DNA of 64,000 nucleotides. Origin: a virus. The DNA lies in the IMG/VR virus record IMGVR_UViG_3300034069_000822; one strand, written 5' to 3'. The position numbers were made by a program, and so were the translations under genes. Positions 26,697 to 50,545 of this stretch are shown in pieces. How positions within the stretch are numbered: the stretch's first letter is position 1; each line of letters begins with the position of its first letter. The notes under the pieces were generated by a model. That model ran no database searches. It saw nothing but the letters and a program-made list of their open reading frames with translations, and had not been told where the DNA came from.

Positions 26697-26718
26697 GGTG
26701 AGTTTCCTTTTTACGATA

Positions 26719-27531: not shown

Positions 27532-27587
27532 TGATATACTCGGAAATCAATCTTTGAACTCCGAGTATACCATATTCGTTTTCCCGT

Positions 27588-28634
27588 TCAAACGCCCAAT
27601 AGCTGCGCTACTGCCGCTGGGTATCTAATGACCGCACCCCAACTACCCGCCGTCTTCTTCTGCTTCCAGGCCGAGAGCTCGCGAACGATGGCATGATCCC
27701 GGGATTTTTCATTGAAGGAGCAGAAGCCGGTGTCCTGACCGTCGAAACGATCGGCGATGAGCTGGACGACATTGCCGGCACCGGTGGCATAGCGCGGCGA
27801 GGTCTTCACCTTCAGCTTGGGGAAGTTCTTGGCCAGAAGATCGGTGACATTGACGCCGAACGAGTTGGTCGAGGTCATGGCCACGGCAGAGCCCGGAGGC
27901 AGCGCCAGGGTCATGTCATCAGTCGCCTCAACACGGCCGGCGGTCTGTGCCACCAACTTGTTGAAGATGGCCTGGATGTCCGCGAACACTTCATTGGCCG
28001 TGGCATTGATGACGCCGGCGCCCGTGATCCAGGTCACGCCACCCGCTGCCTTCGTGGCCGGGGTCAGCGGAGCCGACAGGGCCGGATCATTGAGCAGGCC
28101 ATAGTTCTGCAGACCAGCAACACCGTTGTGATAGGTGTAATCCTGGAACTTGCTCAGCGTTAGTGCGGCCGACATCTGCTTTTCAGCAACCCAGTTCAGC
28201 TTTGCCGTCGCCATGCGAGCCTGTTCAAGATCGCCATATTCGATGATGGTCTGGAACAGATAGGACTGGCGCTGCGGGAACGTGGCATTCGCGTCCGACA
28301 TGCCGACATTGTTCTGGTCGCCGTAGCTGGACACCTCACCGGTGTTTTCCACGACGAGGAACATGGCTGTCTGGGTCGTCCAGTCGCCTTCCTTGCGTTC
28401 GCCGAGGATGTCAGCGCCCTTGTTGGGAGACTGAAGAACCCGGATCACTTCCGGATCGACATAGGTCGTGAACAGCGCCGGGACACCGCTGGAGCCGGGA
28501 CCAACGGCGAGCGTCGGCTGGGCATCCAGTGCGACCTGATAGTTTCGCTTGTAATCGAGCGGAAGGTAGTCCTGAGCGAGGACGACAATACCCCAGTCCT
28601 GCTCAAGGCGGGTGAAATCAACGTGCTTGATCAT
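27588..28634 (-). CDS. Major capsid protein (DUF2184-like)
   Basis: G.W......F...E.TG....YGD, GVAGLQNYGLLNDP, FNEK.R.H...Q.K..G.WG..IR.P. Confidence 0.9.
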   Translation of the reverse strand: MIKHVDFTRLEQDWGIVVLAQDYLPLDYKRNYQVALDAQPTLAVGPGSSGVPALFTTYVDPEVIRVLQSPNKGADILGERKEGDWTTQTAMFLVVENTGEVSSYGDQNNVGMSDANATFPQRQSYLFQTIIEYGDLEQARMATAKLNWVAEKQMSAALTLSKFQDYTYHNGVAGLQNYGLLNDPALSAPLTPATKAAGGVTWITGAGVINATANEVFADIQAIFNKLVAQTAGRVEATDDMTLALPPGSAVAMTSTNSFGVNVTDLLAKNFPKLKVKTSPRYATGAGNVVQLIADRFDGQDTGFCSFNEKSRDHAIVRELSAWKQKKTAGSWGAVIRYPAAVAQLLGV

Positions 28635-28645
28635 GGCTGCCTCGC

Positions 28646-29146
28646 TTAGATCGTGTCGGTCATTTTGATGAGTTCCGACGCAGCACCAGCGGTGGCCGCA
28701 TAGAACTTGGTCTCGATGCTGCCGGCGACAGTGGCGCCAGCGGCTGCGAAGGAGATCACACCAGTCGTGAGATTGGCGAACGCCTTCATGCCGACCGTGG
28801 CCGCACCGGCGCCGGCATTGTTCACCCAGACATCACCGCCGTTGATGATATCGCCGGCCGGGAAGCCGGATGGGATCGTGTTGCCGAACTCGGTCAGATA
28901 CGTCGTGATGATGGCCTGTTCGGTCCGGATCACGATACCAGTGGGCAAACCCGAACCGGTGTTGTTCAGGAGCCGCGGAACGCCATTGGTGTCATTGGCC
29001 GTCCATGCGAACAGACCGACGGTGACGCCATTGGCACCGGCGCAAAAGCCGCCTTCCACGGTAAGAGCCGAATGGCGCGGATTGACGGAGGCGACCTGAC
29101 CGGCAACGGCCGGCGCCTGGGTGAGATTGACCTGCCTCTGGAACAT
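28646..29146 (-). CDS. Head decoration/cement protein
   Basis: FQRQVN..QAPAVAG..AS.NP; lies between scaffold and capsid. Confidence 0.8.
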   Translation of the reverse strand: MFQRQVNLTQAPAVAGQVASVNPRHSALTVEGGFCAGANGVTVGLFAWTANDTNGVPRLLNNTGSGLPTGIVIRTEQAIITTYLTEFGNTIPSGFPAGDIINGGDVWVNNAGAGAATVGMKAFANLTTGVISFAAAGATVAGSIETKFYAATAGAASELIKMTDTI

Positions 29147-29158
29147 TGCTGGATCTCC

Positions 29159-30904
29159 TTACTTGAGGCGGCCGGCGTTCGGGAAACGCTGCGAATAAGC
29201 GTCCTGAGCGGCGGCATCCATGGCAGTGGTGACGGGAGCGGCGGAAGTCGAAGGCACGGGGAGAGCCTTCAACAGGGAGCGATATGCCGAGGGGTGAAGA
29301 CCCGCGATATCGATCTTCATGGCATCCAGGGCGTGACGATAGACCTTGTCGGCGCTGTCGCAGGCCACGGCGATTTTGCCGACGTAGGGGCGAACCTCGT
29401 CCTCGGCGATGCGGATGTCGTTGAACTGTTTCCGAACACGCTTCTCGACGGCTTCGGCAGAGGTTCGGATCGCTTCATCCATGGCGGACTTGCTGACCTT
29501 CTCCTCCTTGTCGTCCTCATCATCCTCGTCTTCGGCGACTTCCTCGCCGTCGTCCTTGGCGCCCTTGGCCTTTTCGTCTTCTTCTTCGTCCTCGGCCTTC
29601 TTGTCTTCATGCTCCTCGTCTTCGCCGCGAGGCTCCATTTCGTCCTGGGCGATGAGCGTCTTGATCACCTCGTCGATATTGGCGTCTGCCGCCAGTTTAC
29701 CGTCGAGGGCAGTTTTGAACGCCGCGACCCTCGCCGCGCGCGCCTTTGCTTTCGGCGAAGTCGCCATTGTGATGTTCTCCATGGGACGTGGGGTGAGTGC
29801 GCTATCTTGGACAAGAACGTCCGGGCCTGCGCGGCCCTGCTCAACGAGGGCTAAATGATTACCCCCGATGTCTCTCATCGTGCCGTCAAAAGCTTCCCCA
29901 TCCGGCGTAGTGCCCGGTGTCATATCCGGGCGGTATCGATACCCGGCTGAAAGCTCTCGTTGTTCGTCGGTCTCGATCAACTCGATTGCCTTGCCATCCC
30001 ACACCGTCAACGGCGCGGTGAGATAGGGCGCGTCGAAGCTGACCGGGCTTCCGATTGTGCCGACGGTTAGTTCCTTGGGATGATCATCGGCGTTGACCGG
30101 CTTGTGGCGGATCAAGAGCGGCTTGCCCTCAAAGCTCGACGCGGCACGCGCCAGTTCCTTGGGATCACGATACAGCCGGTAGATGTGCTCTGGATCGAGG
30201 CCAAGCCGTTCGAAATCTGGAACCTCACGGCCATAGTATGGGTTGACCACCGCCTTGCTAATCGGGGTCCGCTCGACGTGGAGGTGGCCGTCGGCATCGA
30301 TCGAGCGAACCGTGGCCCGGTCCAACGCGATGCAATCCTGCGCACCCTTCACGCGATCCAACCAGTTGTCATCGATTTCCTCGAAGACCTCGGGTCCGAA
30401 TTCCAAGGGGCCGTCATATGGCGCGACCTTGGTCAGATCGACGCCCGCTCCGAAATAGGTAATCGTGACGTGCGGCCTATATTGCGGCCAATCCCAAGAT
30501 GCGCCGCCGTCCTCAAAGGTGCGGTGGCGTTCCGCGAGTTCGTCACTCTGAAACAGAAGGCAGACCGCTCCCTTGTCACCAAGCTCCTCGACCGATCGGG
30601 GGCCGAGGATGGCGACGGCAGTGTTCTCGCGCGGCTTGAACCGGTCCCAATCGACCGGCTCGTTGCTGTAGGCCACTGTCACATGGAGATCGTCGGCCTT
30701 CAGCGTCTCGTCGAAGCCCTGCAGGATCGCCCATGCCAGGAATTCACGGGTGTTCAGCAACGAGCGGCGAACATAGAGCGGGCGTGCTTCGGCCGCGTCC
30801 TTTCCAACGAACTCTTCGCCAACGGCCCTTGGGATGCCGAGCGTAGATTTGCCAGCGGCGGCGGCAAACATCGCCTTCCGCTGAGCCTCAGAGACAGCCG
30901 GCAT
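29159..30904 (-). CDS. DUF2213 prohead protease/scaffold with an N-terminal Acb1-like 2H phosphodiesterase domain
   Basis: DUF2213 core (R..D.DG.L.V, ELSAGY, NHLALV..GRAG) from aa ~195; two HxT motifs LHVTVAYS (aa 74) and PHVTITY (aa 145); acidic scaffold tail. Confidence 0.85.
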   Translation of the reverse strand: MPAVSEAQRKAMFAAAAGKSTLGIPRAVGEEFVGKDAAEARPLYVRRSLLNTREFLAWAILQGFDETLKADDLHVTVAYSNEPVDWDRFKPRENTAVAILGPRSVEELGDKGAVCLLFQSDELAERHRTFEDGGASWDWPQYRPHVTITYFGAGVDLTKVAPYDGPLEFGPEVFEEIDDNWLDRVKGAQDCIALDRATVRSIDADGHLHVERTPISKAVVNPYYGREVPDFERLGLDPEHIYRLYRDPKELARAASSFEGKPLLIRHKPVNADDHPKELTVGTIGSPVSFDAPYLTAPLTVWDGKAIELIETDEQRELSAGYRYRPDMTPGTTPDGEAFDGTMRDIGGNHLALVEQGRAGPDVLVQDSALTPRPMENITMATSPKAKARAARVAAFKTALDGKLAADANIDEVIKTLIAQDEMEPRGEDEEHEDKKAEDEEEDEKAKGAKDDGEEVAEDEDDEDDKEEKVSKSAMDEAIRTSAEAVEKRVRKQFNDIRIAEDEVRPYVGKIAVACDSADKVYRHALDAMKIDIAGLHPSAYRSLLKALPVPSTSAAPVTTAMDAAAQDAYSQRFPNAGRLK

Positions 30905-31134
30905 AGAATTCTCGCAGTGTTAGGAGTGCGGTCTATTCGACCGTGAGACGCAAGCGGTCGAGTATCCAACGCGCCAATCTGTCGTAGTCGGCTTCTGAAG
31001 GTTGCCAACCGAAGAGAGCACAAAGCTTCCAGAAGACCATGCGGGCCCGTAGTTTCGCCCGGAGCGCCAATGGCACGGCTATTCGGATTTCGCTGACAAT
31101 CATCACGAAACCCTCTTTTCACTCGGCGTCTGGG

Positions 31135-31329
31135 CTACCAGCCCATCGCGACAGCGGACCAAATGGCGAAACAAATGCCAAAGATCATGATCATGCCAGG
31201 ACTGCGGAACGAGCCACCGGGCAGATCGTAGTTTGTTCGACGATCGATGGAGCGCATTACCTTCAAGGCGCGGGCCCTTTCAGCCGGGTCTTTTGGAAGA
31301 ACCGGTGGGGGCGATGCAATCAATCCCAT
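31135..31329 (-). CDS. Small membrane protein, 64 aa
   Basis: TGATG coupling to the upstream gene; C-terminal TM. Confidence 0.55.
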   Translation of the reverse strand: MGLIASPPPVLPKDPAERARALKVMRSIDRRTNYDLPGGSFRSPGMIMIFGICFAIWSAVAMGW

Positions 31330-32156
31330 CACGAAAATCCCTTGATCACCGGCCTGCCGACGCATCTGCAGTTGATCAGTTCGCCGGGCTGAATGAATTG
31401 CTTCACAGCGGGATCGTACCAACCTTTCGAAACCTGATAGCGTGTCTTTTCGCGCCCGGCCTTCAGATGTGTATGGCGGGGCTCCCTGGCGGCACCGCTG
31501 TGCGTCCAGATGGCCTCGTCGATCCCGACTTCCTGCAACCTGACCCGATTGAAAGCCGCCGTAGCCTTGTTGTTCTGATCCAAGGATATAAACGCGGCCC
31601 GGCGCTTGGTGACGCCCAGCCTTGTCTCCAGATCGGACGCCAGTTGCCCGAGATCGCGGCCGGTCTGCACCGATCGCATCACCATTCCCTCGACCTGGTC
31701 CAGATACTGGGCGGGGATCGATTTGATCAGGGCAACATTCTGGTGAACCGTGGCGTCGACAACATCCCGCATCACCGGCGTCATCTTGAACTCGACCGAC
31801 ATGCCGCCGTCGCGAAGAATCTTCTTCAGCGCCGCGGTGGATCGTTTCTCAACCGATTGCGCGAAGTAGGCTGCCAAGTTCTCGGCTGCGGTATCGAACT
31901 TCTTCAGCCACTGCGCCGAAAGTTGTTTCATGGTGCGCCGAAGCACATCCGCCGGCGTCTCGTCCATTGCAACACGTGGCTCGTTCGCTCGATACGACGC
32001 CTTGACCCAGTACATCACACTGACGTGCATGGCCTCGACGAGACGATCAAGCTTCTTCCGGTATGCTTCAGCGATCCCGACGTTTGGTCGAACCGGGCGA
32101 AGCACCTTTTCCGTCTTGCTCCGGGGCGCTCGCTTCCGGCTTTGCAGGCTCGACAT
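31329..32156 (-). CDS. Minor head morphogenesis protein (SPP1 gp7/Mu gpF family)
   Basis: LIKSIP.QY, RA..I..DQ..K, W.HS....PR..H, PGELINCRC. Confidence 0.88.
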   Translation of the reverse strand: MSSLQSRKRAPRSKTEKVLRPVRPNVGIAEAYRKKLDRLVEAMHVSVMYWVKASYRANEPRVAMDETPADVLRRTMKQLSAQWLKKFDTAAENLAAYFAQSVEKRSTAALKKILRDGGMSVEFKMTPVMRDVVDATVHQNVALIKSIPAQYLDQVEGMVMRSVQTGRDLGQLASDLETRLGVTKRRAAFISLDQNNKATAAFNRVRLQEVGIDEAIWTHSGAAREPRHTHLKAGREKTRYQVSKGWYDPAVKQFIQPGELINCRCVGRPVIKGFS

Positions 32157-32234
32157 CGCGATCCTTCAGCGTATCAGCGATTGGCCGATCTTTCGGCGTT
32201 CTCGCGTTGATGACATCCCAGAGATCAAGCTTGA

Positions 32235-33800
32235 TCACGCCGCGGCCTTTTTCCCGTCGTCGAATAGCCCATTTATAGGATGGCCGCCCTTCGGCTCAAG
32301 GCCTTCTTCCTCCTCAATGAGGAGGTCCGGCACTTCGTCCGGATCGAGGTTTTGATACATGCTGTCTGGATCGCTTGCTAGGCTACTGCGCGCTTCCTCT
32401 GGCGAGACAACACCGGAATCGATATCAATCTGGCGGGTTTCGGCCTTCGTCTTCTCGACTTCAGCCAGGCCCTTCTCGTCGAGAGACCACAGCGGCTCGA
32501 ATTCGAAATCGATGCCATCGTCGGTTTCACCCCACAGCGAAAGCATCACCAAACCTAAGAGGGCATGCAAGTTCTGGCGATAAAGGTCCTCCTGGAAGCT
32601 GTGTGTCCAGTCATAAAACGACCGCAACTCACCTTCCGACGATGCGTTCAGGCCCGCCGGCTGGACGCCGAGCAGCTTCACCGTTGGGATATGGCTAACG
32701 GATGCCATATGCTCCTGTGATTGAGCCTGGAGCGCGTCGAGGCCACTGAGTGGCGACGAGACATTCTCGAACTCCTCCGCCTCTTTGTCGATCATCAGCA
32801 AACCGCGATTGGATCGCGTATTGTTGAACATCGCCGCGCGGGCCAGCATGCTGTCAGCCGAACCACCGCTCAGAACGGCATCCATTCCTGTCTTCAGAAC
32901 GAACTGCGTAAACGACGTGATGATGTCGTTGACGCCCTGCCGAGTTTTCAACCAGTTCTCGACATAGGGATACGCCATCTGTGACAGCGAGATGCCCCCG
33001 AACGAATAGGCCGGTTTCAGCAGATCCGGCACCGGGCGGCCGATAAACGTCAGCAACCGTGTCTTGTGGACGCTCCTGCCCATCACGTTCCAGGATTGTG
33101 GGTCGTACCAGCCATCCTCAAAAGGATCGGCCGCATTGTAGCCCGTCGGGTATATCCAGACCGGCTCGATGAGCTTCAACTTCTTGATGCTGCCCTTTCC
33201 AATTTTGGCTGCCGAAACCTTGTCCCAGCCATCGCCGATACTCTTGGCCATCTCTTCGGGATTTTTGGAATCGCCGGTATCGATGCTGATATGAGCTCGC
33301 CCGAAGTACCCGTCGGTCTCGGCGACCTTTTTGAACACCGCCCTGACATTGAGGCGCTTGAACTCCGCCTCGAGTTCAGTGATCCGCTCAGCCTTGTCCT
33401 TCTCTTGGGCCTTATTCTTGGCCGTAAATCTGATCCAGCGGCGAGTGCATTCCCCGGCGATGATCTCCGACATCATCCGATATTCCGGACGCTGCGCGAG
33501 TTCGGCCAGGACCGGGTAGCCCATGAAGGCCGAACCCTGGTAGCCGAACGTTGCCGCAGCGCTGGCATAGGCATTGGCGGCCCAGCCGTTGATGCTGTCC
33601 ATCGCCGTATCCATGGCGATGGCTTTGTCATGCGTTCCAACCAACGGGGGATGGACTGCAGCCTTGAACGGCCGGACTTCCGCCTGAACGACGCGCGTCG
33701 CGGCAACAGCCTCCTGCGATACCTTCATGACCTGTTGAGCAGGTTGCGCCACCTCGGCCGTTACTATTTCGGCCTTCCGGCGCCAGAACCAAGACAACAT
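32235..33800 (-). CDS. Portal protein, DUF1073 family
   Basis: FMGYP.LAELAQ.PEYR, IP.VKLLG..P.GLNASSEGE.R.FYD. Confidence 0.9.
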   Translation of the reverse strand: MLSWFWRRKAEIVTAEVAQPAQQVMKVSQEAVAATRVVQAEVRPFKAAVHPPLVGTHDKAIAMDTAMDSINGWAANAYASAAATFGYQGSAFMGYPVLAELAQRPEYRMMSEIIAGECTRRWIRFTAKNKAQEKDKAERITELEAEFKRLNVRAVFKKVAETDGYFGRAHISIDTGDSKNPEEMAKSIGDGWDKVSAAKIGKGSIKKLKLIEPVWIYPTGYNAADPFEDGWYDPQSWNVMGRSVHKTRLLTFIGRPVPDLLKPAYSFGGISLSQMAYPYVENWLKTRQGVNDIITSFTQFVLKTGMDAVLSGGSADSMLARAAMFNNTRSNRGLLMIDKEAEEFENVSSPLSGLDALQAQSQEHMASVSHIPTVKLLGVQPAGLNASSEGELRSFYDWTHSFQEDLYRQNLHALLGLVMLSLWGETDDGIDFEFEPLWSLDEKGLAEVEKTKAETRQIDIDSGVVSPEEARSSLASDPDSMYQNLDPDEVPDLLIEEEEGLEPKGGHPINGLFDDGKKAAA

Positions 33801-33809
33801 GAAGCTTCC

Positions 33810-35273
33810 TCAGATTCCAGGCATTGCCGTCTGTGTCACCGCCGTCGGGCTGATGATCATCGGGCGCTTGGCATGCGAATTGTCCGCAGCGATCACAGCA
33901 TCCGCCAGGTTGTGAGACTTCACGCCCAGGTCCTTCTTGAGCTTCACCTTCGGCACGACCCGTTTTTTGCCCTCGGTTTCAACCCACCACGGCACGCATA
34001 GCTCGGTGAATAGTGCGTCGAGTTTGGCAACACCCATCCCCGAAGAGAACGATAGAACGTCCTCAGGCTTGATGGCGTGGCCCCGCGTCACCGCATTGAA
34101 CGTCAACATCGCGCGGCGAGCCGTGTTGGCCCACGCCTGTGCCTTGCGGTTCAGATACTCGTCCTTGTTGAGCGGGCTTTGCCGATTGTAGGGATCGCTC
34201 GGCTTATCAGGATCTTCCACCGCGCCGCCGGCATGGAATGCGTAGTGCTGAACCTTCGCTTGGTTTTCACGGTTCTGCTCATCGATGTAGCCACCGACGA
34301 AAGCACCCACACCGATCGTGTCGTAAGAGACTGTCGCTCCCATGAGTTTGGCTTTGGCCCAAACCCGCTTGGCGTTCTGAACAAGTTCATCCTTGCCAGA
34401 TGCCCAGTCTTCGGCGTCGAAGAATATGCCTCCGATCTTGTCGGCAGTGGCGCAATTATCCTCGCCGTCATCGGCAGGATCGAAGCCGATCGTATTCCGG
34501 CCGGTCAACGTGACATTCAGGACGGTATGCGCATCAACGCAGGCATCCAGCCAACGCCGCTTGAAGATCGAAAGCTCGCTATCGCCGAGTGGTACGCCAC
34601 CGTAAACGTGCTCGAACTTCTCAGGCTCGCGCTCTTGCATTGCCGCAATGTCGCGCTTGGCCTTGTCCGAGAGGAACGGGTTTTCCGAGTAGTCGATCTT
34701 GTGGACTAGGCAGTGCTCGGGGGTGCTTACAACGAAATTCTTCCACACATAGTCCGTAACGAATTTCGGATTGAAGAGCAGGATCGTGAGGCTGTCCTCT
34801 TTGCGGATCGTCGGCGCGATAACGACCCACTGCTCTTCCGTAAGTTTCTCCGCCTCCTCCACCCAAAGGATGTCGATGTCCGACGTGCCTTTGATGTCGT
34901 CGAGGTTTCGCTCGATCCCGTAGAAGATGAACTCGGAACCGGTCGCCTTGTGGACGATCGTCGTCTTCATGACGTCGAACGCGGCACTGAGCCCGAGATG
35001 ATTTATGGCCCACTTCAGTTCAGTGTAGACCGATTCCTGAATGCGATTCTGAAAGCGCCGGATGCAAAGAACGCGCATCTTGACAGTCAGGTGATTGATC
35101 AGCCTCACCAACTGGCAGGCGGTATCCCTCGTCTTCGAACTGGATCGACCACCGTGCAGGACAGCAATGTCGACGCTGCCGAGGAACACCTCTTCCCAAA
35201 AGTCATAAAGCGCCGGGTTGGTGAGGTGCGTGCTGTCCTCTAACTCTTCTCGCTGCGCAGCACGTCGCGCCAT
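33810..35273 (-). CDS. terL: Terminase large subunit (PBSX family)
   Basis: HGGRSSSKT Walker A, CIRRFQNRI.ESV, LWVEEA, FNP, GFDPAD. Confidence 0.93.
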   Translation of the reverse strand: MARRAAQREELEDSTHLTNPALYDFWEEVFLGSVDIAVLHGGRSSSKTRDTACQLVRLINHLTVKMRVLCIRRFQNRIQESVYTELKWAINHLGLSAAFDVMKTTIVHKATGSEFIFYGIERNLDDIKGTSDIDILWVEEAEKLTEEQWVVIAPTIRKEDSLTILLFNPKFVTDYVWKNFVVSTPEHCLVHKIDYSENPFLSDKAKRDIAAMQEREPEKFEHVYGGVPLGDSELSIFKRRWLDACVDAHTVLNVTLTGRNTIGFDPADDGEDNCATADKIGGIFFDAEDWASGKDELVQNAKRVWAKAKLMGATVSYDTIGVGAFVGGYIDEQNRENQAKVQHYAFHAGGAVEDPDKPSDPYNRQSPLNKDEYLNRKAQAWANTARRAMLTFNAVTRGHAIKPEDVLSFSSGMGVAKLDALFTELCVPWWVETEGKKRVVPKVKLKKDLGVKSHNLADAVIAADNSHAKRPMIISPTAVTQTAMPGI

Positions 35274-35641
35274 GTCCGGCTTTCTGTCTGGATCGGGCCA
35301 CCTTCTGGACCTGAGACCTCAGTCTTCGTCGGGGCATGACTGCCCTGCATCTTGTTGGCCTCAGCGATGGCAGAGACGGCCACTCGGGCGTCGTTCTTCT
35401 CGGCGGCATCGGAGATACGCTTGAGGGCCGCAAGCCTGTCCACGGCCGTCCATTCGGCTTTCTCGGCGACTCTTTCCTGCTTCTTTCGGATCAAATCCGC
35501 GATGTCAGGTTTCGTCAGGTTTTCGGACCCGACACTCCGCGCCGTCTTCTCGCTGTACCCAGCGCGTATCGCTGCCTGGGTAGCATTCAGATCCACTAGG
35601 TATTCCGCGACGAAGCGCTGCTGCTTGTCAGTGAGATTCAT
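35240..35641 (-). CDS. terS: Terminase small subunit
   Basis: LT.KQ..FV.EYL.DLNATQAAIRAGYS.KTA...G.ENL.KP. Confidence 0.93.
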   Translation of the reverse strand: MNLTDKQQRFVAEYLVDLNATQAAIRAGYSEKTARSVGSENLTKPDIADLIRKKQERVAEKAEWTAVDRLAALKRISDAAEKNDARVAVSAIAEANKMQGSHAPTKTEVSGPEGGPIQTESRTWRDVLRSEKS

Positions 35642-39190: not shown

Positions 39191-39555
39191 GCCCGTGCCC
39201 TCCGGTTCCTGTATTCGACGGCTACAGTCGATCCGCTGGCATTGCGCGGCGTCATTGGTGCAGAGCCGAACACCTTGGCCTTTTCCGCGGCGGCTTCATC
39301 GGCCTTCTTGCGGCGCCATCGTTCGATTTCATCGAGTTCTGCCTCCGGCTCGACCGTGCAGGCCTGTACAGGCGAGTTGAGACGCTGCCTGACATATTCC
39401 CTGGCCACAGCCATGGCTTGTCCAGCAGTCGCCATTGGCTGATTGCCCGGAACAATATGAAGCTGCTTGCCAGTAAACAATCGATAGGCCGGAACGTAGC
39501 CGCCACCGACCGGCAGATACCAGTATTCTGGAAGGAAATCGGGTGCGTTGGGCAT
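39187..39555 (-). CDS. Hypothetical protein, 122 aa
   Basis: In-operon ORF with coupled start and stop. Confidence 0.7.
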   Translation of the reverse strand: MPNAPDFLPEYWYLPVGGGYVPAYRLFTGKQLHIVPGNQPMATAGQAMAVAREYVRQRLNSPVQACTVEPEAELDEIERWRRKKADEAAAEKAKVFGSAPMTPRNASGSTVAVEYRNRRARA

Positions 39556-41048
39556 CAGAACAGCCTCATAGGATCAGAGGAAACGGGCGTGTCGAATCTT
39601 TCGGGAAACCCGTTCTCGCCAATTTCGAAGAATGAAGTGGTGCCGCCGTCCCATCCAACGGTAACGTTTGCGGGCCATGGCAACTCACGCGACAGGGCAA
39701 GAACGAACTGTGCCCGGCCGCGCCATTCGGCGACCTTGCATTCCCATACTCCGTAGAGTTCAGAGCCAGGCGTAGGCTCGTTTTCCATCAGGAAAACCTC
39801 GGGCCGGAACGGCATGATGACGTGATCGGCATCCCGTTCGACTGCCCCTATGAGGTCGGAATACCGAGGCTTGCGGCGGATAATGTCGTTAAGGAACTTC
39901 TCGTTGAGCGGCCCTTTGTTTTCCGCGAAGGTGTTTTTCTTCAACTGGACGCAGACGACAATCGGGCAATCGAGATCGCGTGCCGTCGCCTTCAGTTCGC
40001 GGGTGACTTCCTCGCCAAACTCCCAGTTGCTCATTTTGGCCGTGGCCCTATCCCGATCGAGCAACCCGGCATGATCCAGGATCAACAGGGACTTGCCGCG
40101 TTTGCGCACGATGCGTCTCCAGCGATCCTTCAACTGCGGCAGTGTCAGACGGCGATTTTGAATGAGGATCGGTGTGTCTTTAAGTGCTTGGTGGACTTCC
40201 ACCATCTGCGCGAACTGCGCCTCGGTGAGTTCGCCGCGCTTTTGCCTGCGGACCGGAACACCGATGCGCCGCGATATTTCGCGCATGGCCAATTCCTGGG
40301 CCGTCATCTCGCCGGAATAGAAATCGACTGGGTATCCTTCCAGCGCCGCGCCGATTGACATCTGACCGACCAATCCGCTCTTGCCCTGCTTGGTCGCGCC
40401 GCCAATGATGATCAACTGCCCACCGAACAACGGCCCGATTAGGCGCTCAAGCGGCCCAACTCGATACCCGATACCGGCCGCCCGTTTGCCGTCCTTCATG
40501 AAGGCGGCGTTTGCCATGTCGATGGCGGACGTGATGGCATCGCCCATGCTGATCGCACCAAGCGTTTCCGCATCTGTCTCACAAGCAGCAGATATTTCGT
40601 CGATTGCCATGTCGCCGAGCGATTGCGGGTCCGCTTCCGCAGGGGCGTCAAATGCGGCTTCACGCAGGTGGTCTGCAGCCACGATCAGCCGTCGGCGTCG
40701 GGACATGTCTTCGATAGCGCGCGCATAGTCCACAGCATTGATGACGGTCACCGCCTCAGCTGCCAGCCGAGCTAGATATTGCGCCACCGTCATGCCGCCA
40801 ACTTTTTCATCAGCAGGCAGGAACGACTTCACCGTGACCGGGTTCGCAGTCTTTCCCAATTTGATCAATTCGATGCAGGTGTCATAGATTCTGCGGTGTA
40901 GAGGTTCGAAAAAATGGGATGGGCGCAGAAACTCCAACGATCCCACGAGATCATTGTTGGCAAACAGCGCACCCAACAGAGCCTGTTCGGCCTCGATGTT
41001 GTTCGGGGATTCACGAGGAAGGGCGAAATCGTAGCTGTGAGCGTTCAC
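39555..41048 (-). CDS. DnaB-like replicative helicase
   Basis: EAEQALLGAL, FF...H..IY, GATKQGKS Walker A, FYSGEM, ILDHAGL, DL.GA.E.DAD. Confidence 0.92.
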   Translation of the reverse strand: MNAHSYDFALPRESPNNIEAEQALLGALFANNDLVGSLEFLRPSHFFEPLHRRIYDTCIELIKLGKTANPVTVKSFLPADEKVGGMTVAQYLARLAAEAVTVINAVDYARAIEDMSRRRRLIVAADHLREAAFDAPAEADPQSLGDMAIDEISAACETDAETLGAISMGDAITSAIDMANAAFMKDGKRAAGIGYRVGPLERLIGPLFGGQLIIIGGATKQGKSGLVGQMSIGAALEGYPVDFYSGEMTAQELAMREISRRIGVPVRRQKRGELTEAQFAQMVEVHQALKDTPILIQNRRLTLPQLKDRWRRIVRKRGKSLLILDHAGLLDRDRATAKMSNWEFGEEVTRELKATARDLDCPIVVCVQLKKNTFAENKGPLNEKFLNDIIRRKPRYSDLIGAVERDADHVIMPFRPEVFLMENEPTPGSELYGVWECKVAEWRGRAQFVLALSRELPWPANVTVGWDGGTTSFFEIGENGFPERFDTPVSSDPMRLF

Positions 41049-42262
41049 TCTGCCACCTCCATCATCCGAACAAGGCGAGCTGCGCCGGCGGAGCCTCTGC
41101 CGGCAAGGCGAGCTGCGAGAGTGCGGATCGCATACGCTGCTTGAAGCGGGACAACTCCGTTGCCGAGCATGCGAAGTCGATCCACACGCCCAACGTCCAA
41201 CCGGGAGGCCAGCCCATCAGCCACTCGACGAACAGCGGGTTCAAGCTCCGGCGCTCTTTCAAGGGTACGTCGCCAACTGGAGAGGTCGCTTGGCCCGGGA
41301 GGAAAGAGGCCAACCGCATCGTCTCGTTGTATGAGCGCGAGTTCCCCGGCTGATGGCTGTCTCCGAAACTCAACGATGTCGGCGTCGGCCATTGCACCGT
41401 CTGCGCTGGTAACGGCACCCCGCCCGCTCCAAAGGCTTGGTTCGGCCCGCCCTTCTCCCCGTCCGATGCCCGCGGTGTCGACCAAAGCTGTTCCGTCGCA
41501 TAGTCCAGCCGGTCGCCTCGCATCTGGCCGTCCTTGCGCTCCAGCGTTGGGCCGCTGCCCTTCCAGTCGTTCGCAGTAGGCGTCGGCCAGGCCGACGCCT
41601 GAAACGCCTTCGCCTGCAATGTGAGTGTCCCTGTCTCCCCGGGTCGATCCGCTGGCGCCATGCGCATTCGCCGCACCTGCCAACTCTCTGGCGATTCGTC
41701 GTTCTCGTTCGCCCGCGGCGTTATCCACGCCGAGGATGAAGAGGCGTTCGCGCTCGTGGCTCGCGCCGACCTCTGCCGCCGTGAACAATCCTCCCTCAAC
41801 GTCGAAACCCAATCGCTGTAGGTCACGCCTGACCCGTAGCGCGCCCGCATCGAGGCCGGGCTTCGCCGAGAGCATTCCCGAGACATTTTCGATGAGGACA
41901 AACCAAACGCCCGATTGGACGATGATGCGGCGGGCTGTTGACCAGAGGTCGCGTTCGTCGTCGGAGCCTTCGCGCTTTCCGGCAAGGCTATGAGGCTGGC
42001 ACGGGATGCCGCCAATGAGGCCGTCCACGCATCCACGCCAGCGTCTGCCGTCGAAGGATCGGGCATCGCTCCACACAGGAGCCGGATGAAGGAGACCTTG
42101 TTCCATCGCTGAAACCAGGTGCGCGACGGCGAAGGCTTCCCTCTCGACCATGCAGACTGAGCGAGCGCCTGGAATTGCCAGCTCGACGCCGAGATCAAGT
42201 CCGGCTCCGCCTGTGCAGATGGAGAGGATGTCGAGGTGATGGGGACGAACAGCCACATTCAC
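41045..42262 (-). CDS. C5-cytosine DNA methyltransferase (motifs I, IV, VI, VIII, X)
   Basis: SICTGGAGLD, GGIPCQPHS, ENV, HERERLF, RLRMLGNGV. Confidence 0.9.
   Translation of the reverse strand: MNVAVRPHHLDILSICTGGAGLDLGVELAIPGARSVCMVEREAFAVAHLVSAMEQGLLHPAPVWSDARSFDGRRWRGCVDGLIGGIPCQPHSLAGKREGSDDERDLWSTARRIIVQSGVWFVLIENVSGMLSAKPGLDAGALRVRRDLQRLGFDVEGGLFTAAEVGASHERERLFILGVDNAAGERERRIARELAGAANAHGASGSTRGDRDTHIAGEGVSGVGLADAYCERLEGQRPNAGAQGRPDARRPAGLCDGTALVDTAGIGRGEGRAEPSLWSGRGAVTSADGAMADADIVEFRRQPSAGELALIQRDDAVGLFPPGPSDLSSWRRTLERAPELEPAVRRVADGLASRLDVGRVDRLRMLGNGVVPLQAAYAIRTLAARLAGRGSAGAARLVRMMEVAE
41062..42258 (-). CDS. Overlapping alternate-frame ORF (398 aa) carrying WPTP repeats and a motif IX-like segment
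   Basis: WITP, WPTP, WSTP, WPTP repeats; RSLNPLFVEWLMGWPPGW; ATG directly after the upstream stop codon. Confidence 0.6.
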   Translation of the reverse strand: MWLFVPITSTSSPSAQAEPDLISASSWQFQALAQSAWSRGKPSPSRTWFQRWNKVSFIRLLCGAMPDPSTADAGVDAWTASLAASRASLIALPESAKAPTTNATSGQQPAASSSNRAFGLSSSKMSRECSRRSPASMRARYGSGVTYSDWVSTLREDCSRRQRSARATSANASSSSAWITPRANENDESPESWQVRRMRMAPADRPGETGTLTLQAKAFQASAWPTPTANDWKGSGPTLERKDGQMRGDRLDYATEQLWSTPRASDGEKGGPNQAFGAGGVPLPAQTVQWPTPTSLSFGDSHQPGNSRSYNETMRLASFLPGQATSPVGDVPLKERRSLNPLFVEWLMGWPPGWTLGVWIDFACSATELSRFKQRMRSALSQLALPAEAPPAQLALFG

Positions 42263-42933
42263 GCTGCCACCTGCAGATCGAGTTTCTTTTGAGCACGCTT
42301 GGCCGATGCCTTGGCCTTCTTCTCGGCCCGCTTTTGCTCCAAAGCTTCTGGCCCGTCGTGGACAAGCCAGTACATCATGCCGAGCGCGTCAGCCTCGTTA
42401 TCGTTTTTCGGCTTGAGGTTGCGGCCAGGCGCATGACATTCGGCCAAGACCCGATCTTTCAGCCACTTGCGCCGGGCAGCATAGCGATCGTTATCTTCAA
42501 GCCCGGCCCCCACTTCCTTGGGCGCCTTGGTCGTGTGGATGAATGACGATCGCCACGTATCGGGCGGGCAAATGATCGGATAGGGACGGCCTTTGCCTGA
42601 GCACCACAATTCCAGGGCAATTCGCCACATCGCAGCCATAAGCCGCCCGGCTTCGCTCCGCTGTGAACCGTAAGATTCCCCCTCAAGCGCGATCTCGATT
42701 TCGTCGTCAGCGATATCGTGTTTGCGAAGCAGATCATTGAGGCATCGGATGAAGTGCCGGCCGTAGCTGGCGCGGTCTTTGTAGCGCGTGCCGTCGGTAT
42801 CCTTGGTCAAATCCCATGTGCCATAGGAAAGACGCTGACCTGGCGTGCGCTGCTGGTCTGCCGGCAAATGGCTATCGTCCAGCATCAAGGCCCAACCGAA
42901 TTGCGTCGAAGGATCGAGGGTGAGCTTGTGCAT
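42259..42933 (-). CDS. RuvC-like Holliday junction resolvase, 224 aa
   Basis: LDPSTQFGWA, IALEG, NEADALG acidic catalytic pattern. Confidence 0.75.
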   Translation of the reverse strand: MHKLTLDPSTQFGWALMLDDSHLPADQQRTPGQRLSYGTWDLTKDTDGTRYKDRASYGRHFIRCLNDLLRKHDIADDEIEIALEGESYGSQRSEAGRLMAAMWRIALELWCSGKGRPYPIICPPDTWRSSFIHTTKAPKEVGAGLEDNDRYAARRKWLKDRVLAECHAPGRNLKPKNDNEADALGMMYWLVHDGPEALEQKRAEKKAKASAKRAQKKLDLQVAA

Positions 42934-43205
42934 CAGGCGGCCTCCTCTCGCGACAAGCCGCCGAGCCGCAAGTCGGCTTCCGTCGGCTCTTCGATATGGT
43001 CGATGAAACAGCGGCCCCACATGCATGATGTATCGAAAATGGCGCGCTGATCATCTGTCCGGCCTTGGAGCAACATCACGCCTGTAAAGCAGTCTTTCGA
43101 CTCGGACTCGTCTGCCCAAACCTCAATACGCGAGCCGCTGTCCATGACCGCTATCATGCCGGTAGGCGGATAGAAGAGCGGGCCAGCCCATTGGACTTGC
43201 GTCAT
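42933..43205 (-). CDS. Hypothetical protein, 90 aa
   Basis: Coupled start and stop. Confidence 0.65.
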   Translation of the reverse strand: MTQVQWAGPLFYPPTGMIAVMDSGSRIEVWADESESKDCFTGVMLLQGRTDDQRAIFDTSCMWGRCFIDHIEEPTEADLRLGGLSREEAA

Positions 43206-44569
43206 GCTGCCCTCCTGATCTTCAGCATTCCGGTAGGTACGTTCGTGCCAGCCTCAGCGAAACTGCCTACGGGCAAGTCACGCCATTCGCCTTCGAGCTC
43301 GCCGTGGTCGTAGTGGGCGGTTGCCGGGAGGATCGAAACGAGCTGCCCGCCTGGCTTCAGGAACTCGAGTGCATGGCGGACGTGCTTGAGATAATGGCGA
43401 CCGCTGAAGGGCGGGTTCATCACGACCATGTCGTAGACCGGGCTGGCCGGGCATTCGAGGAAGTTAGCCGTTAGGACGTTGTGTCCCTTGGAACGTGCCT
43501 CGGCGGCGCGGACGGCGTGATATTCGACACCAAACGCCCGATGGCCGCGAACGCGGATCGCGTCCATGATCAGGCCATCACCACAGGATGGTTCCAGGAC
43601 GCGAGAAGGCTCGGGAGGATTGTTCCGCCACTCCCGTAAATTGGATAGGCCGGCAAATTCCAAAGCCCGTTCGATCACATCGGCCGGCGACCAATAGAAT
43701 TGCAGGTCTTTCGAGACGGCTGTGCCAGTGCGCGGCTTGGCGTCGTCTTCTTCGGCGTCCGGCAAAACCTCGCCGTAGAATTCGGCGAGCGCACGGTTGA
43801 TGTCGAGCAAGGTATTGGGTGCGAAGAAAACGTGGGCGTTGCCGTTGGCGAAGGTGCGAACCGTCATGCCGCGATCGAGCGTTTTGGCGACCGTCACCTT
43901 GCCGTAGCGGTCGGTTTCTGAAGCCTCTCGTCCATCAAGTATCCCATCGGCTCCGGCGCTGTGCATGATGGCAAGGGCGTTGAACTCTTCCCGTTCCATC
44001 AACGGCTGCCCGCGATAGGCCGCGAGCGCGTTCACGATGTCGCGGAACTTGTTCTTTCCATAAGTGTCGGAATAGCTGCCCCAAGAACCGATGATGACCC
44101 GCTTAGGCAGCCCCTTGACACCGATCTTGACCTTGGAGTGCGACTTATAGGCCGGGTCGAGGTCAGCAAAGGTTTCGGCGAGACCGCGAAGAATGTGCGC
44201 GCGCGGGTTCTCAAGATATGGGCCGAACGTCGCCTTGGCGTTGTCGAAGGTCAGTTCCGGCGGGTCGGCCAACGTGCGTTCAAAAAGCTTCTTGTCTTTG
44301 GCGCTGGCGATCCGGTCGATATTCAGGCGGCCGTAGATCGCCTTCCATCCCGAAGACAACAGGTTCTTGCGCATCTCGGAGGCATGCACATGGGCGCGAC
44401 CGCGCAGCACCGGGTTGACGTAGGTGCCCATGATCGTGCCCGCCATTTCCACGGCAGTGCACGCGTCGTTGTACGCTTTGATAGCCTCGTCGACATTGGC
44501 AGCCTTGCGGTTGTATTCGGCGATGATGTCGAGGACAGTGCTTTGCCGGGTGAGAGTGTGCGAGGTCAT
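43202..44569 (-). CDS. DUF4942-domain amino-methyltransferase (probably N6-adenine), 455 aa
   Basis: VLEPSCGDG, MNPPF; N-terminal region with DLQFYWSP; true start MTSH. Confidence 0.85.
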   Translation of the reverse strand: MTSHTLTRQSTVLDIIAEYNRKAANVDEAIKAYNDACTAVEMAGTIMGTYVNPVLRGRAHVHASEMRKNLLSSGWKAIYGRLNIDRIASAKDKKLFERTLADPPELTFDNAKATFGPYLENPRAHILRGLAETFADLDPAYKSHSKVKIGVKGLPKRVIIGSWGSYSDTYGKNKFRDIVNALAAYRGQPLMEREEFNALAIMHSAGADGILDGREASETDRYGKVTVAKTLDRGMTVRTFANGNAHVFFAPNTLLDINRALAEFYGEVLPDAEEDDAKPRTGTAVSKDLQFYWSPADVIERALEFAGLSNLREWRNNPPEPSRVLEPSCGDGLIMDAIRVRGHRAFGVEYHAVRAAEARSKGHNVLTANFLECPASPVYDMVVMNPPFSGRHYLKHVRHALEFLKPGGQLVSILPATAHYDHGELEGEWRDLPVGSFAEAGTNVPTGMLKIRRAA

Positions 44570-45708
44570 GCGGCCTCCCCGCCGAAGAGCGGCCCGTATT
44601 CGACTGTCTTTGGCTTCTGCGGCACACGCCATTCGGTTTCGATCCGACGGCGGGCCATCTCGGCATATTCTGGGTTGAGTTCGATCAATGTAGCGTGCCG
44701 ACCGTGGCGAAGGGCAACCAGGGCCGTTGTGCCAGCGCCGCCGAATGGGTCGAGTACCAAGCCGCCTTTCGGGCACCCGGCGAGGATGCAGCGCTCGGCT
44801 AGTTCCGGCGGGAATGTCGCGAAGTGAGCGTCAGAGAACGGCTGCGTCGCCATTGGCCACACGGTGAGCGGTGCCGGCTCGTAGTTGCGGAGATTGCGTC
44901 CTTCAATCGCCACTTCAAGATATTCAGGGTCTCCGCGTCCCTCGCGATGGATTGATCCATGCCCTCCTTCGCCTGTGTCCCACCCAGCCGGCACTTTGAC
45001 CTTGCGAGACTGGCGAACCGGCATTGTGGCGGCCATGTTCGCCTTCTTTACTTTGCCGCTACCATCATCCTCGACGTCGTTGCGGACCGTGCCGTAGGTC
45101 GTCAGGGTCTTAGGCCGTAGTCCAAAGCGAACGGCCTCTGCGTCGTACCAATAGCGGGCTGACTTGGAGAGCAGGAAGATTTTCTCGTGTGAAGTTCCAG
45201 GGCGATCTTTCGCACTGTCCGGCATGGGGTTGGTCTTGCCCCAAACGATCTCTGATCGAACCCACCATCCAGCTTCCTGCAGCGCAATGGCGAGGCGGTT
45301 CGGCATCATGCAAAGGTCTTTGGCCTTCAGCACACCGCCGATGGTCGAAAATGGCTTGTCGCGGAATGTGCGATCATCGTTGCCGGTCGCTTTCGTGTCG
45401 GCCGCAGAGCGACCGTTGGGCGTGGTAGCGTAGCAGTCGCCGTAGTTGATCCAGCAGGTGCCGGTCGGCTTCAGAACCCGCTTCACCGCTTCGAACACGC
45501 GGACCATAACGTCGAGGTGTTCTCCGAGCGTCGGCTCGAGTCCGATCTGACCGTCCACGCCGTAATCGCGGAGCCCGTAGTAAGGAGGACTGCAAACCAC
45601 ACAATCCACGCTGTCGGCCTCAATGGCTTCGAGAGCGGCGAAGCAATCTGCCGTCCAGAGCGTCACCCGCCCGTCCAAGAATTGCTGATAGTCGGGATGG
45701 ATGGACAC
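44566..45708 (-). CDS. Beta-class N4-C/N6-A DNA methyltransferase
   Basis: SPPY before HFATFP...LDPFGGAGTT. Confidence 0.92.
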   Translation of the reverse strand: MSIHPDYQQFLDGRVTLWTADCFAALEAIEADSVDCVVCSPPYYGLRDYGVDGQIGLEPTLGEHLDVMVRVFEAVKRVLKPTGTCWINYGDCYATTPNGRSAADTKATGNDDRTFRDKPFSTIGGVLKAKDLCMMPNRLAIALQEAGWWVRSEIVWGKTNPMPDSAKDRPGTSHEKIFLLSKSARYWYDAEAVRFGLRPKTLTTYGTVRNDVEDDGSGKVKKANMAATMPVRQSRKVKVPAGWDTGEGGHGSIHREGRGDPEYLEVAIEGRNLRNYEPAPLTVWPMATQPFSDAHFATFPPELAERCILAGCPKGGLVLDPFGGAGTTALVALRHGRHATLIELNPEYAEMARRRIETEWRVPQKPKTVEYGPLFGGEAA

Positions 45709-48638: not shown

Positions 48639-49034
48639 CTATGCCGCCCTCCCCTGGATGCTCAAGCGAGGCAGCGAGACCCAATGACACTCGGCCTTTT
48701 CAGTCAGGAAATTGGTGCCGAGCGCCGTCCGGTTCGGAACGCGCATTGCGTAGGGCCTGATCGAATAGGTCTCGGTGAGCGCGATAGGATCGCGTTCCTG
48801 AATGCGCTCCTCGGGCTTTTCCCTCACCGGCGGCACAATGATGTAGCCGCGGGCGCGGTCGCGGTTGAAGTTGACGCGTTCGCGTCGATGCTCCGCATAG
48901 ACCGGATCGATGGCGCAACGGACCGTGCTGCCCGTGAAGCCGAACTTCTTGCCTATTCCAGTGAAGGAGGCGCCCTCATTACGGAGCCGCTTCATTTCGG
49001 CCCGCATGGCTTCGGTGACGTGATTGGGTTTCAT
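48639..49034 (-). CDS. HTH protein, 131 aa
   Basis: RLRNEGASFTGIGKKFGFTGSTV N-terminal HTH. Confidence 0.65.
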   Translation of the reverse strand: MKPNHVTEAMRAEMKRLRNEGASFTGIGKKFGFTGSTVRCAIDPVYAEHRRERVNFNRDRARGYIIVPPVREKPEERIQERDPIALTETYSIRPYAMRVPNRTALGTNFLTEKAECHWVSLPRLSIQGRAA

Positions 49035-50545
49035 GCCGCCCTCGCAGCTTCATTCGCTTCCGCCCACAGACGGATTTGCTCGGTTTTCGGACGCCGCGAC
49101 CAAGCCATCAGACAGTCGTGGCAGGCATCCCGGCTATGAGACAGATGACAGGTGTATGGCTGCAAGCAGCGTGGATTTTCGAAAGTGGTGCCCGATGCTG
49201 GGGAGAAGGTCAGCACCGGGCTATCCGCGATCACCGGGGAGGAGTTTGGCTCTTGCGGATTGGAAACTTCGGCCGTGGCTGGATCACGGGGGGCTTGGGG
49301 GTTACCAGCCACGGCCTCGACTGCGGGGGCAGTCGATTGGGAAGTGAGTGCCGTCTCTCCGGCTGTCACGCCTGCCCTTTCGGGGCCACTGACGTTTGTG
49401 CCGGGGAACTGCCCGGTCAGAGCTGGGATCACCTCAGGTTGCCCCGATACTCCAGCCTCAGCCGAACCCGTTGCCGGGCCGACCAGATTTGCGGTCCTTT
49501 CGGATACCGCCTCACATGGCCCATTTGCCAAGGATGCTTGTGCCCCATCGGGCGAATTGGTTGCGCCGACTTCCACGGCGCTGCTGGCGCGCTCTGCGCT
49601 GCGGTCTACATCGTCGCCTCCCGTGCCAGGGGCTGGATTGCTCTCTTGCCTGAGATTGAGTTTGGCGACGGCCTCGCTGCCCGTGATGTAGGCCTTGAAG
49701 TCTTGGCGGACGCCGGCGTCGGCTTCTTTCCAGAGTCTGACAAGCTCGTCGAAGATGTTGCGCGGGGAAATGGTGGGGAGGTCGACCGAAGCTGCCTCCC
49801 CTTCGTGGCGGCCCTCACGATCCGCAAGCGTCCCGGCACCTGTACCCTGGCTTTGGAAGGCTTCGGCTTGCGGACCTGCCTCCGGGGATGGCTCATCGTT
49901 TACGAGGGCCTCTCGTGCATTCTTGCGACCGGCGTTGATACCGGCGACGTTCATGACGCCGACTTTGCCGTGCTTGTTTTTGTAGAAACGAGGCGTTCCG
50001 CCTGCCGCTTCGATCTTTTCGAATCGATCCTGAACAGCGGCTGGCACTGGAGGAGGCGGTGCTGGCCTGGGTTTCTCACTTACCGCGCGGTAAGTGACTT
50101 CCTGTCGCTGCTTCTGCACGAATGCCAAGCTGACGTGGCACTTCTGGCGAATGTCGTTGTCCGACCACGCCGACCATTCCGGGTCATTCAGAAGCGTTTC
50201 GACCGCCCGGCGCTTGTCGTCGCGGGTCCGCCTCAGACCATGCATCTCATTGGCGCCGACGCTATGCAGAATTGCATCGCGGCGCGTTCCCTGGCGAACA
50301 TCGGCGGCAACATTCTCCCGGCCGAGCTTCTGATAGGCATGGAACCGGTGGAACCCGTCGGCCAGCCAGTGCTTCTTGCCGTCGTAGAAAACAACGATTG
50401 GCGGGAACGTCGCGCCGGCCTTGATGGCCTCGGCATACTCGCTGACGACGTGCTCGTTGAGCGTTGCGCGCGACTGCGTTCCGCCGTCGATCTGGATGGC
50501 GTCGAGCGCGAGACCATGATCCTCGGGAGACTGGAGGCGGATCAT
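49031..50545 (-). CDS. ParB/Srx-like N-terminal domain protein with a long disordered linker and C-terminal Cys/His cluster
   Basis: TQSR..LN...V.EY......FPPIVVF.DG...LADGFHR..A. Confidence 0.8.
   Translation of the reverse strand: MIRLQSPEDHGLALDAIQIDGGTQSRATLNEHVVSEYAEAIKAGATFPPIVVFYDGKKHWLADGFHRFHAYQKLGRENVAADVRQGTRRDAILHSVGANEMHGLRRTRDDKRRAVETLLNDPEWSAWSDNDIRQKCHVSLAFVQKQRQEVTYRAVSEKPRPAPPPPVPAAVQDRFEKIEAAGGTPRFYKNKHGKVGVMNVAGINAGRKNAREALVNDEPSPEAGPQAEAFQSQGTGAGTLADREGRHEGEAASVDLPTISPRNIFDELVRLWKEADAGVRQDFKAYITGSEAVAKLNLRQESNPAPGTGGDDVDRSAERASSAVEVGATNSPDGAQASLANGPCEAVSERTANLVGPATGSAEAGVSGQPEVIPALTGQFPGTNVSGPERAGVTAGETALTSQSTAPAVEAVAGNPQAPRDPATAEVSNPQEPNSSPVIADSPVLTFSPASGTTFENPRCLQPYTCHLSHSRDACHDCLMAWSRRPKTEQIRLWAEANEAARAA

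Follow-up and report, generated by a model that had tools for sequence, protein, structure and literature searches.

A prophage locus in which two fully overlapping frames of one strand probably encode a two-chain DNA (cytosine-5) methyltransferase

What does a gene encode when a second reading frame of the same strand stays open along almost its whole length, and when the motifs of one enzyme are divided between the two frames? This question is raised by a DNA (cytosine-5) methyltransferase (C5-MTase) locus in the IMG/VR virus record IMGVR_UViG_3300034069_000822, a stretch of 64,000 nucleotides (nt) that is hereafter called the window. The two open reading frames (ORFs), designated f0 and f+1 by frame and alpha and beta by predicted product, are as follows:

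41045..42262, minus strand: f0 ORF (alpha), 405 codons from GTG 42262 or 403 from GTG 42256; C5-MTase motifs I-VIII, an unconserved middle, a conserved segment ahead of the place of motif IX, and motif X
41062..42258, minus strand: f+1 ORF (beta), 398 codons from ATG 42258, +1 relative to f0; an N-terminal peptide that is conserved, then a region predicted to be helical, four W.TP modules, motif IX and a tail

The overlap comprises 398 of the 405 codons. Both ORFs are present as an earlier sequence-only reading by a model had claimed, with 405 amino acids (aa) from a GTG and 398 aa from an ATG, and its remark that LADA in f0 and WPTP in f+1 are spelt by the same DNA was correct, this identity occurring twice in the sequence. 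Our answer, held with fair confidence, is that the two frames encode a two-polypeptide C5-MTase; that both are translated, that the products assemble into an active enzyme and that the modules act in specificity, we infer.

Openness of both frames across relatives

Homologue searches with either frame returned more than 1000 proteins, the full-length matches to f+1 having identities as low as 42%; both proteins occur together on several contigs, and the gene of the relatives is usually annotated as one protein. For comparison, 78 loci were fetched by the f0 motifs only. In the window and in nearly all of these, f0 carries motifs IV and X and f+1 carries the modules and motif IX, and the layout holds at 30-40% identity in Dehalococcoidia, Planctomycetota, Bryobacterales, Myxococcota, Armatimonadota, Saccharibacteria and Acidovorax. 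It is also present, unannotated, in Burkholderia phage phi1026b (gp68) and Erwinia phage Gungnir39.

Of 76 loci, 71 have an f+1 frame that is already open ahead of motif I, 63 have f+1 and f0 ends no more than 60 nt apart, and a single one has a third frame that reaches 250 codons. Over the motif I-VIII region, where the f+1 reading is devoid of any methyltransferase motif, the testable loci (38/38) held no f+1 stop at all against 61.5 expected from synonymous shuffles, whereas the f+2 frame, taken as control in the same region and loci, held 133 stops against 167 expected. For the window alone, shuffling the synonymous codons of f0 gave a mean of 5.6 f+1 stops as against 2 observed, both of them unavoidable, and one stop or fewer was obtained in 0.13% of 20000 shuffles. 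The comparative tests are far stronger than this single-window shuffle, and the openness of both frames is not due to chance.

It should also be recorded that in four loci (L038, L031, L016 and L052) all downstream motifs shift by one frame part-way, as from a single indel; several of these are metagenome-assembled genomes, and the four may represent assembly errors or decayed copies.

Division of the motifs and alternation of the selected frame

The segments that matter for the argument lie, all on the minus strand, as listed below:

42241..42258, minus strand: N-terminal peptide of beta, f+1 codons 1-6; conserved across phyla, f0 reading varies
41723..42232, minus strand: catalytic domain of alpha with motifs I-VIII, f0 codons 11-180; f0-dominant selection, f+1 free of stops
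42004..42198, minus strand: predicted helical region of beta, f+1 codons 21-85; overprinted on alpha motifs I-IV
41359..41727, minus strand: four W.TP modules of beta, presumed target-recognition region, f+1 codons 178-300
41273..41308, minus strand: conserved alpha segment LFPPGPxDxxxW, f0 codons 319-330; f+1 reading variable
41203..41253, minus strand: motif IX of beta, f+1 codons 336-352; f0 reading varies only at first codon positions
41117..41188, minus strand: motif X of alpha and the following helix, f0 codons 359-382; f+1 reading not conserved across phyla

The f0 frame had been described as carrying motifs I, IV, VI, VIII and X without motif IX, and the motif positions bear this out. 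Motif I (the glycine loop that binds S-adenosylmethionine, AdoMet) occupies residues 14-25, motif IV (catalytic Pro-Cys; PCQ) 87-89, motif VI (ENV) 125-127, motif VIII 169-176 and motif X 367-372; ENV at 125-127 and R.R at 171-173 are invariant in 94 sequences. The match to PF00145 is limited to residues 11-183 (E 2.2e-22), motif IX is found in f+1 only, and motifs IX and X do not stand together on the chain that bears I-VIII. The AlphaFold2 (AF2) model of alpha has a per-residue confidence (pLDDT) above 90 at 11-88 and 101-190, of 37-43 at 210-289 and of 95-97 at 371-400. In Foldseek it matched M.HaeIII (1dct_A) with E 1.8e-11 and a root-mean-square deviation of 2.7 over 177 columns and thus has the catalytic-domain fold; the core also matches M.HhaI and DNMT1, and the profile matches motifs I and IV-VIII. 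Alignments of f0 show high conservation at 1-180 and 318-405, with invariant Pro and Trp in the 319-330 segment, and residues 181-317 are unalignable between homologues. To judge from the model, this middle part is probably a long, unconserved and disordered connector.

The f+1 frame was said to be open for 398 codons and to carry four W[PIS]TP repeats and a stretch resembling motif IX, and this proved to be the case: the modules are located at f+1 residues 178, 224, 259 and 290 and motif IX at 336-352, the latter also matching the motif IX stretch of a Streptomyces relative (L078). In alignments f+1 is modular and conserved at 178-352, and the f0 reading of the module DNA (f0 codons 181-317) is the unalignable part. 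Since the number of modules differs between loci from 1 to 7, the previously suggested repeat-variable specificity region is plausible and would lie on beta; the W.TP modules most likely read the target sequence. Across the motif IX DNA, the restriction of f0 variation to first positions marks the f0 reading as a shadow. Among PHROG families, f+1 matches phrog_1008 ('DNA methyltransferase', profile positions 37-281) and phrog_27243, and f0 matches the final part of the same phrog_1008 profile (287-321).

Which frame is under selection was read from codon-position diversity in 28 alphaproteobacterial loci and, column by column, from 15 distant representatives. Along the gene the selected frame alternates:

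f0 codons 1-15: f+1 selected; N-terminal peptide far better conserved than the f0 reading, diversity highest at the f+1 third position
f0 codons 16-180: f0 selected; motifs I-VIII
f0 codons 181-315: f+1 selected; W.TP modules
f0 codons 319-330: f0 selected; short segment with invariant Pro and Trp
f0 codons 341-352: f+1 selected; motif IX
f0 codons 359-382: f0 selected; motif X

It follows from this map that a single chain could include all the conserved segments only by shifting frame four or more times downstream of motif VIII. No shift is needed with two full-length polypeptides, which are therefore the simpler reading.

Prediction of the complex, which the earlier note had proposed as a check, passed its controls. 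The job comprised full-length alpha and beta 170-398, with an alignment for each, and the interface score ipSAE was 0.90, 0.90 and 0.87 against 0.00 for the best control; among solved complexes 58 of 80 attain this mark, among mismatched pairs 2 of 110, a calibration that holds only roughly, as the job was given our own alignments. The runs share at least 74% of contacts, and the partner pLDDT does not fall below 54. Alpha 19-31, 47-57, 158-171 and 315-385 are in contact with beta 287-297, 313-323 and 335-389, so that motif IX and the last module of beta touch the motif I region, motif VIII, the 319-330 segment and motif X of alpha; alpha 320/321 contact beta 346/347. As far as a model can tell, this supports binding of alpha and beta to each other.

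Start junction, proposed mechanism and rival explanations

The question of how both frames could be entered leads to a single short site:

42254..42272, minus strand: start junction, with a Shine-Dalgarno-like site, two f0 GTGs, the f+1 ATG and the upstream TGA

The Shine-Dalgarno-like AGGTGG (42267-42272) stands 8 nt before the ATG (42256-42258). The TGA of the upstream gene occupies 42259-42261 and is overlapped by the first f0 GTG (42260-42262). The start geometry that had been put forward, with GTG 42262 and ATG 42258 both at the upstream stop, is correct, and a second in-frame f0 GTG at 42254-42256, within the first two f+1 codons, can be added to it. Of the 66 loci tabulated, 54 have an f0 start inside the first two f+1 codons (GTG, or ATG in a variant longer by one codon); in the others this place is taken by ATG, by TTG or, in a single locus, by CTG alone; the start 4 nt upstream of the ATG (N-T-G overlapping the TGA) is missing in many loci. 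The junction TGA-ATG-TGG is kept across loci with unrelated upstream genes, and neither the upstream gene nor the downstream helicase is homologous across loci.

Three further observations concern this junction. In loci L002-L071 (position ~1501) the upstream genes are wholly different, each ending at the same TGA directly before the f+1 ATG; the methylase cassette seems to recombine exactly at the coupled junction. In L057, L063, L064 and L073 (Acidovorax and relatives) the stop-to-stop f+1 ORF extends 180-840 nt further upstream than f0, which may reflect an in-frame fusion of beta to the upstream gene. Finally, the deposited protein P0092 (Rhizobium lusitanum, L005) has the f+1 peptide at its N-terminus and follows f0 from motif I onward, the result either of an indel close to the start or of a chimeric annotation.

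In the mechanism we favour, ribosomes would load at the single Shine-Dalgarno-like site or pass over from the TGA of the upstream gene; initiation at the ATG would yield beta, initiation at the GTG 2 nt downstream or 4 nt upstream would yield alpha, and both frames would then be read across the whole 1.2 kb. One loading site, or termination-reinitiation, feeding both frames would explain why f+1 is open from its first codon. Alpha would contribute the AdoMet-binding and catalytic core (I-VIII), the connector, the short conserved segment and motif X; beta would contribute the N-terminal peptide, possibly a folded helical region, the W.TP modules and motif IX. The chains would join as one enzyme of canonical C5-MTase architecture, motif IX of beta packing on the motif I, VIII and X elements of alpha. 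A heterodimeric methyltransferase with near-total gene overlap was one of the two options offered by the sequence-only reading, and it is supported by whole-gene openness in most relatives, by per-frame selection and by the complex model.

The rival that survives best would have beta made but placed outside the catalytic fold, as a separate DNA-binding specificity or regulatory factor or in a role unrelated to methylation; we regard it as improbable. It agrees with the isolation of beta among known proteins, as the Pfam search of f+1 gave nothing meaningful, the beta profile matched no PDB sequence with E of 1 or less, a Foldseek search of the PDB with the beta model gave nothing with E of 0.001 or less, and a wide VIA-align search returned generic helical matches only (best Z 3.8); these negatives are not evidence that the N-terminal region or the modules lack a fold. 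The N-terminal region, moreover, shows some selection of its own and a confidently predicted helical fold that is without known relative. However, beta bears a clear motif IX that is missing from alpha, split relatives put the same modules on a chain with motifs IX and X, and the complex model sets motif IX against the alpha core with low error.

Still less probable is programmed ribosomal frameshifting, the other option originally offered, by which one canonical chain would be made from f0 motifs I-VIII, a +1 shift into the f+1 modules and motif IX, and a return to f0 for motif X. The order of motifs on the DNA is indeed canonical (I-VIII, target recognition domain (TRD), IX, X), phrog_1008 is matched by f+1 in its larger part and by f0 at its end, and the first module begins right after motif VIII. 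Nevertheless, the f0-specific segment 319-330 sits between the f+1 modules and the f+1 motif IX, so that the single chain would need at least the four shifts counted above; frameshifting would require neither f0 to be open across 135 unconserved codons nor f+1 to be open over the catalytic region, as it is in all 38 loci; the f+1 N-terminal peptide and its ATG are conserved; and some relatives exist as two separate genes. No conserved slippery heptamer was found at the boundary of motif VIII and the modules, and the canonical -1 slippery heptamers in the window gene, one per frame, both lie away from any frame boundary. The combination expected of a programmed shift, i.e. a conserved shift site and each frame closed outside its coding part, is not seen, both frames being open throughout, and a frameshift-joined enzyme is disfavoured.

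That f+1 is open but non-functional, a relic or by-product of composition beside an alpha that is active alone or a gene that is inert, is very unlikely: the G+C content of the region (64%) lowers stop frequency and in this single sequence the first 180 open f+1 codons are only mildly unlikely, but the absence of f+1 stops from 38 loci with the other frame as control, the open f+1 of E. coli phage K1ind1, which does not belong to the high-G+C alphaproteobacterial elements, the f+1-specific third-position variation at motif IX and modules, and the lack of motif IX on alpha all speak against it.

Within the two-polypeptide explanation, a bolder version can be put forward tentatively. The enzyme would be 'braided', its segments alternating between co-translated frames with at least five switches, and beta from about 20 to 85 would form a domain overprinted on alpha motifs I-IV. 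With a dual start and both frames translated, paired indels would merely move a segment to the other chain, and about 200 nt would be under amino-acid selection in two frames simultaneously. The AF2 model of beta (93 sequences) has pLDDT 80-92 at the helical residues 21-85 and about 75 at 134-171, and is low elsewhere. In eight distant lineages, identity at 4-fold f0 sites was 0.50 against 0.31 expected for codons 20-87 and 0.37 against 0.30 expected for codons 88-133, the expectation being taken from codon usage. Within the catalytic-domain DNA some f+1 residues are fixed via f0-synonymous sites: invariant or near-invariant third bases at codons 62, 72, 43 and 76 fix f+1 L61, A71, P42 and V75, and other bases at these four positions would not yield stops. 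This constraint on f0-synonymous sites also counts in favour of the two-polypeptide explanation as a whole. A folded, overprinted domain in the N-terminal region of beta we regard as possible.

Several points weigh against the two-polypeptide explanation, or against a part in it for the first half of beta. The 5' part of f+1 is not open in 5 of 76 loci, and either this part is not strictly required or those five copies have decayed. The N-terminal 180 codons of beta show f0-dominant substitution periodicity, from which it follows that most of the conservation of this half is shadow; most of it may be only a read-through leader, and the AF2 confidence at beta 21-85 may be inflated by shadow conservation from f0. 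Furthermore, the loci are phylogenetically related and counts across them are not fully independent. As to the complex, besides its rough calibration, single-chain C5-MTases have been solved, and its pass may therefore reflect likeness to them.

Should both frames be translated, each of thousands of phage and prophage proteins annotated as 'DNA cytosine methyltransferases' would be only half an enzyme, and the half that probably sets specificity would be missing from protein databases or listed as 'hypothetical protein'. This would affect the assignment of methylomes to genes, specificity prediction in the manner of REBASE and the biology of phage anti-restriction. The locus would also offer a large, ancient and easily manipulated case of same-strand dual coding with a built-in internal control, as either frame can be closed silently in the other, and a natural system for studying how one DNA can be optimised for two proteins and how the subunit ratio is set by a dual start codon. 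At about 1.2 kb, the braided arrangement would rank among the longest conserved cases of same-strand dual coding known from bacteria and phages. The layout is spread over several phyla and mostly absent from annotation.

The surroundings of the locus in the window are the following:

42259..43026, minus strand: upstream RuvC-like resolvase gene (phrog_159, E 2.7e-12), in the f+1 frame, its TGA abutting the beta ATG
39555..41048, minus strand: downstream DnaB-like helicase gene (PF00772, PF03796), its GTG sharing bases with the f0 stop (GTGA)
26700..35300, minus strand: major head, protease, portal and large terminase genes, at ~27.6-35.3 kb
49031..50545, minus strand: ParB-like gene

Judged by its gene content, the stretch is a prophage, and the methylase gene lies within its replication and modification block. 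Two further DNA methyltransferase genes are located just upstream, at 43202..44776 and 44566..45708 (both minus strand), and encode a DUF4942 plus AdoMet-dependent methyltransferase protein and a PF01555 N6/N4 methylase, which makes three methylases in a row in one prophage. As listed, these two ORFs overlap by about 210 nt, and the 524-aa ORF therefore probably starts further in.

Comparison with known two-chain and split methyltransferases

How far, then, does this locus resemble known enzymes? The alpha core model superposes on the catalytic domain of the monomeric M.HaeIII and M.HhaI (1dct, 1hmy); in those enzymes the TRD and motif IX are on the same chain, whereas the alpha middle is without counterpart there and predicted to be disordered.

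In M.AquI, a naturally split C5-MTase, the two subunits are encoded by separate genes. The enzyme recognises CYCGRG, and its smaller subunit holds motifs IX and X (PMC3404938). The resemblance lies in the catalytic motifs being on one chain and the distal variable region and late motifs on the other (PMC3404938); unlike in M.AquI, the genes here cover the same DNA and alpha keeps motif X.

Gordonia phage Upyo (MT521997, L081) has two adjacent genes, 54 (603-1148) and 53 (1171-1872), both annotated 'DNA methylase'. Gene 54 carries motifs I-VIII, and gene 53, in the +1 frame of gene 54, carries four modules with motifs IX and X. The LLPTP-type modules are of like kind, motifs IX and X are likewise present, and the catalytic and recognition halves are separate polypeptides in Upyo; the genes differ from ours in that they do not overlap and in that motif X stands on the recognition chain. 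By analogy, they provide independent support for a two-chain assembly.

In Escherichia phage K1ind1 (NC_041897) both ORFs of the same dual-frame layout are annotated (ORF29 of 274 aa and ORF28 of 230 aa, 'Mte8-like'), and ORF28 lies in the +1 frame as here; unlike here, its beta as annotated begins 88 nt inside alpha and has one module. A literature search found no functional description of ORF29/ORF28. The Streptomyces locus L078 (1607-2413) was considered as a single-frame relative and rejected: its motifs IX and X are in f0 with I-VIII, but its LLPTP-type modules are still in the +1 frame, in an ORF that begins only after motif IV, and the locus represents a variant, not a genuine one-frame form. 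Its partition implies that segments sit on different chains in different lineages.

The nearest described parallel is M.EcoHK31I from E. coli HK31 (YGGCCR), in which alpha holds motifs I-VIII, X and the TRD, beta, encoded in an alternate frame inside the alpha gene, holds motif IX, and both are needed for activity (Lee, Kam and Shaw 1995, as described in PMC2836561 and PMC3404938). The analogy drawn in the sequence-only reading holds for the layout as published: at our locus too, beta is in an alternate frame within the alpha gene, an arrangement kept in 63-71 of 76 loci, with motif IX on beta and motifs I-VIII and X on alpha. Where the beta of M.EcoHK31I is a short internal ORF, the overlap here spans the whole gene, with starts 2-4 nt apart; where its TRD is on alpha, the presumed recognition modules here are on beta, the alpha middle being unalignable with pLDDT 37-43; and beta here has an N-terminal part overprinted on the catalytic domain. 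In contrast to both M.EcoHK31I and M.AquI, selection is interleaved between the frames.

No family-level description of this dual coding was found in a literature search of incomplete coverage. What sets the locus apart from M.EcoHK31I and M.AquI is the total overlap, the shared starts, the presumed recognition modules on beta and the interleaved selection.

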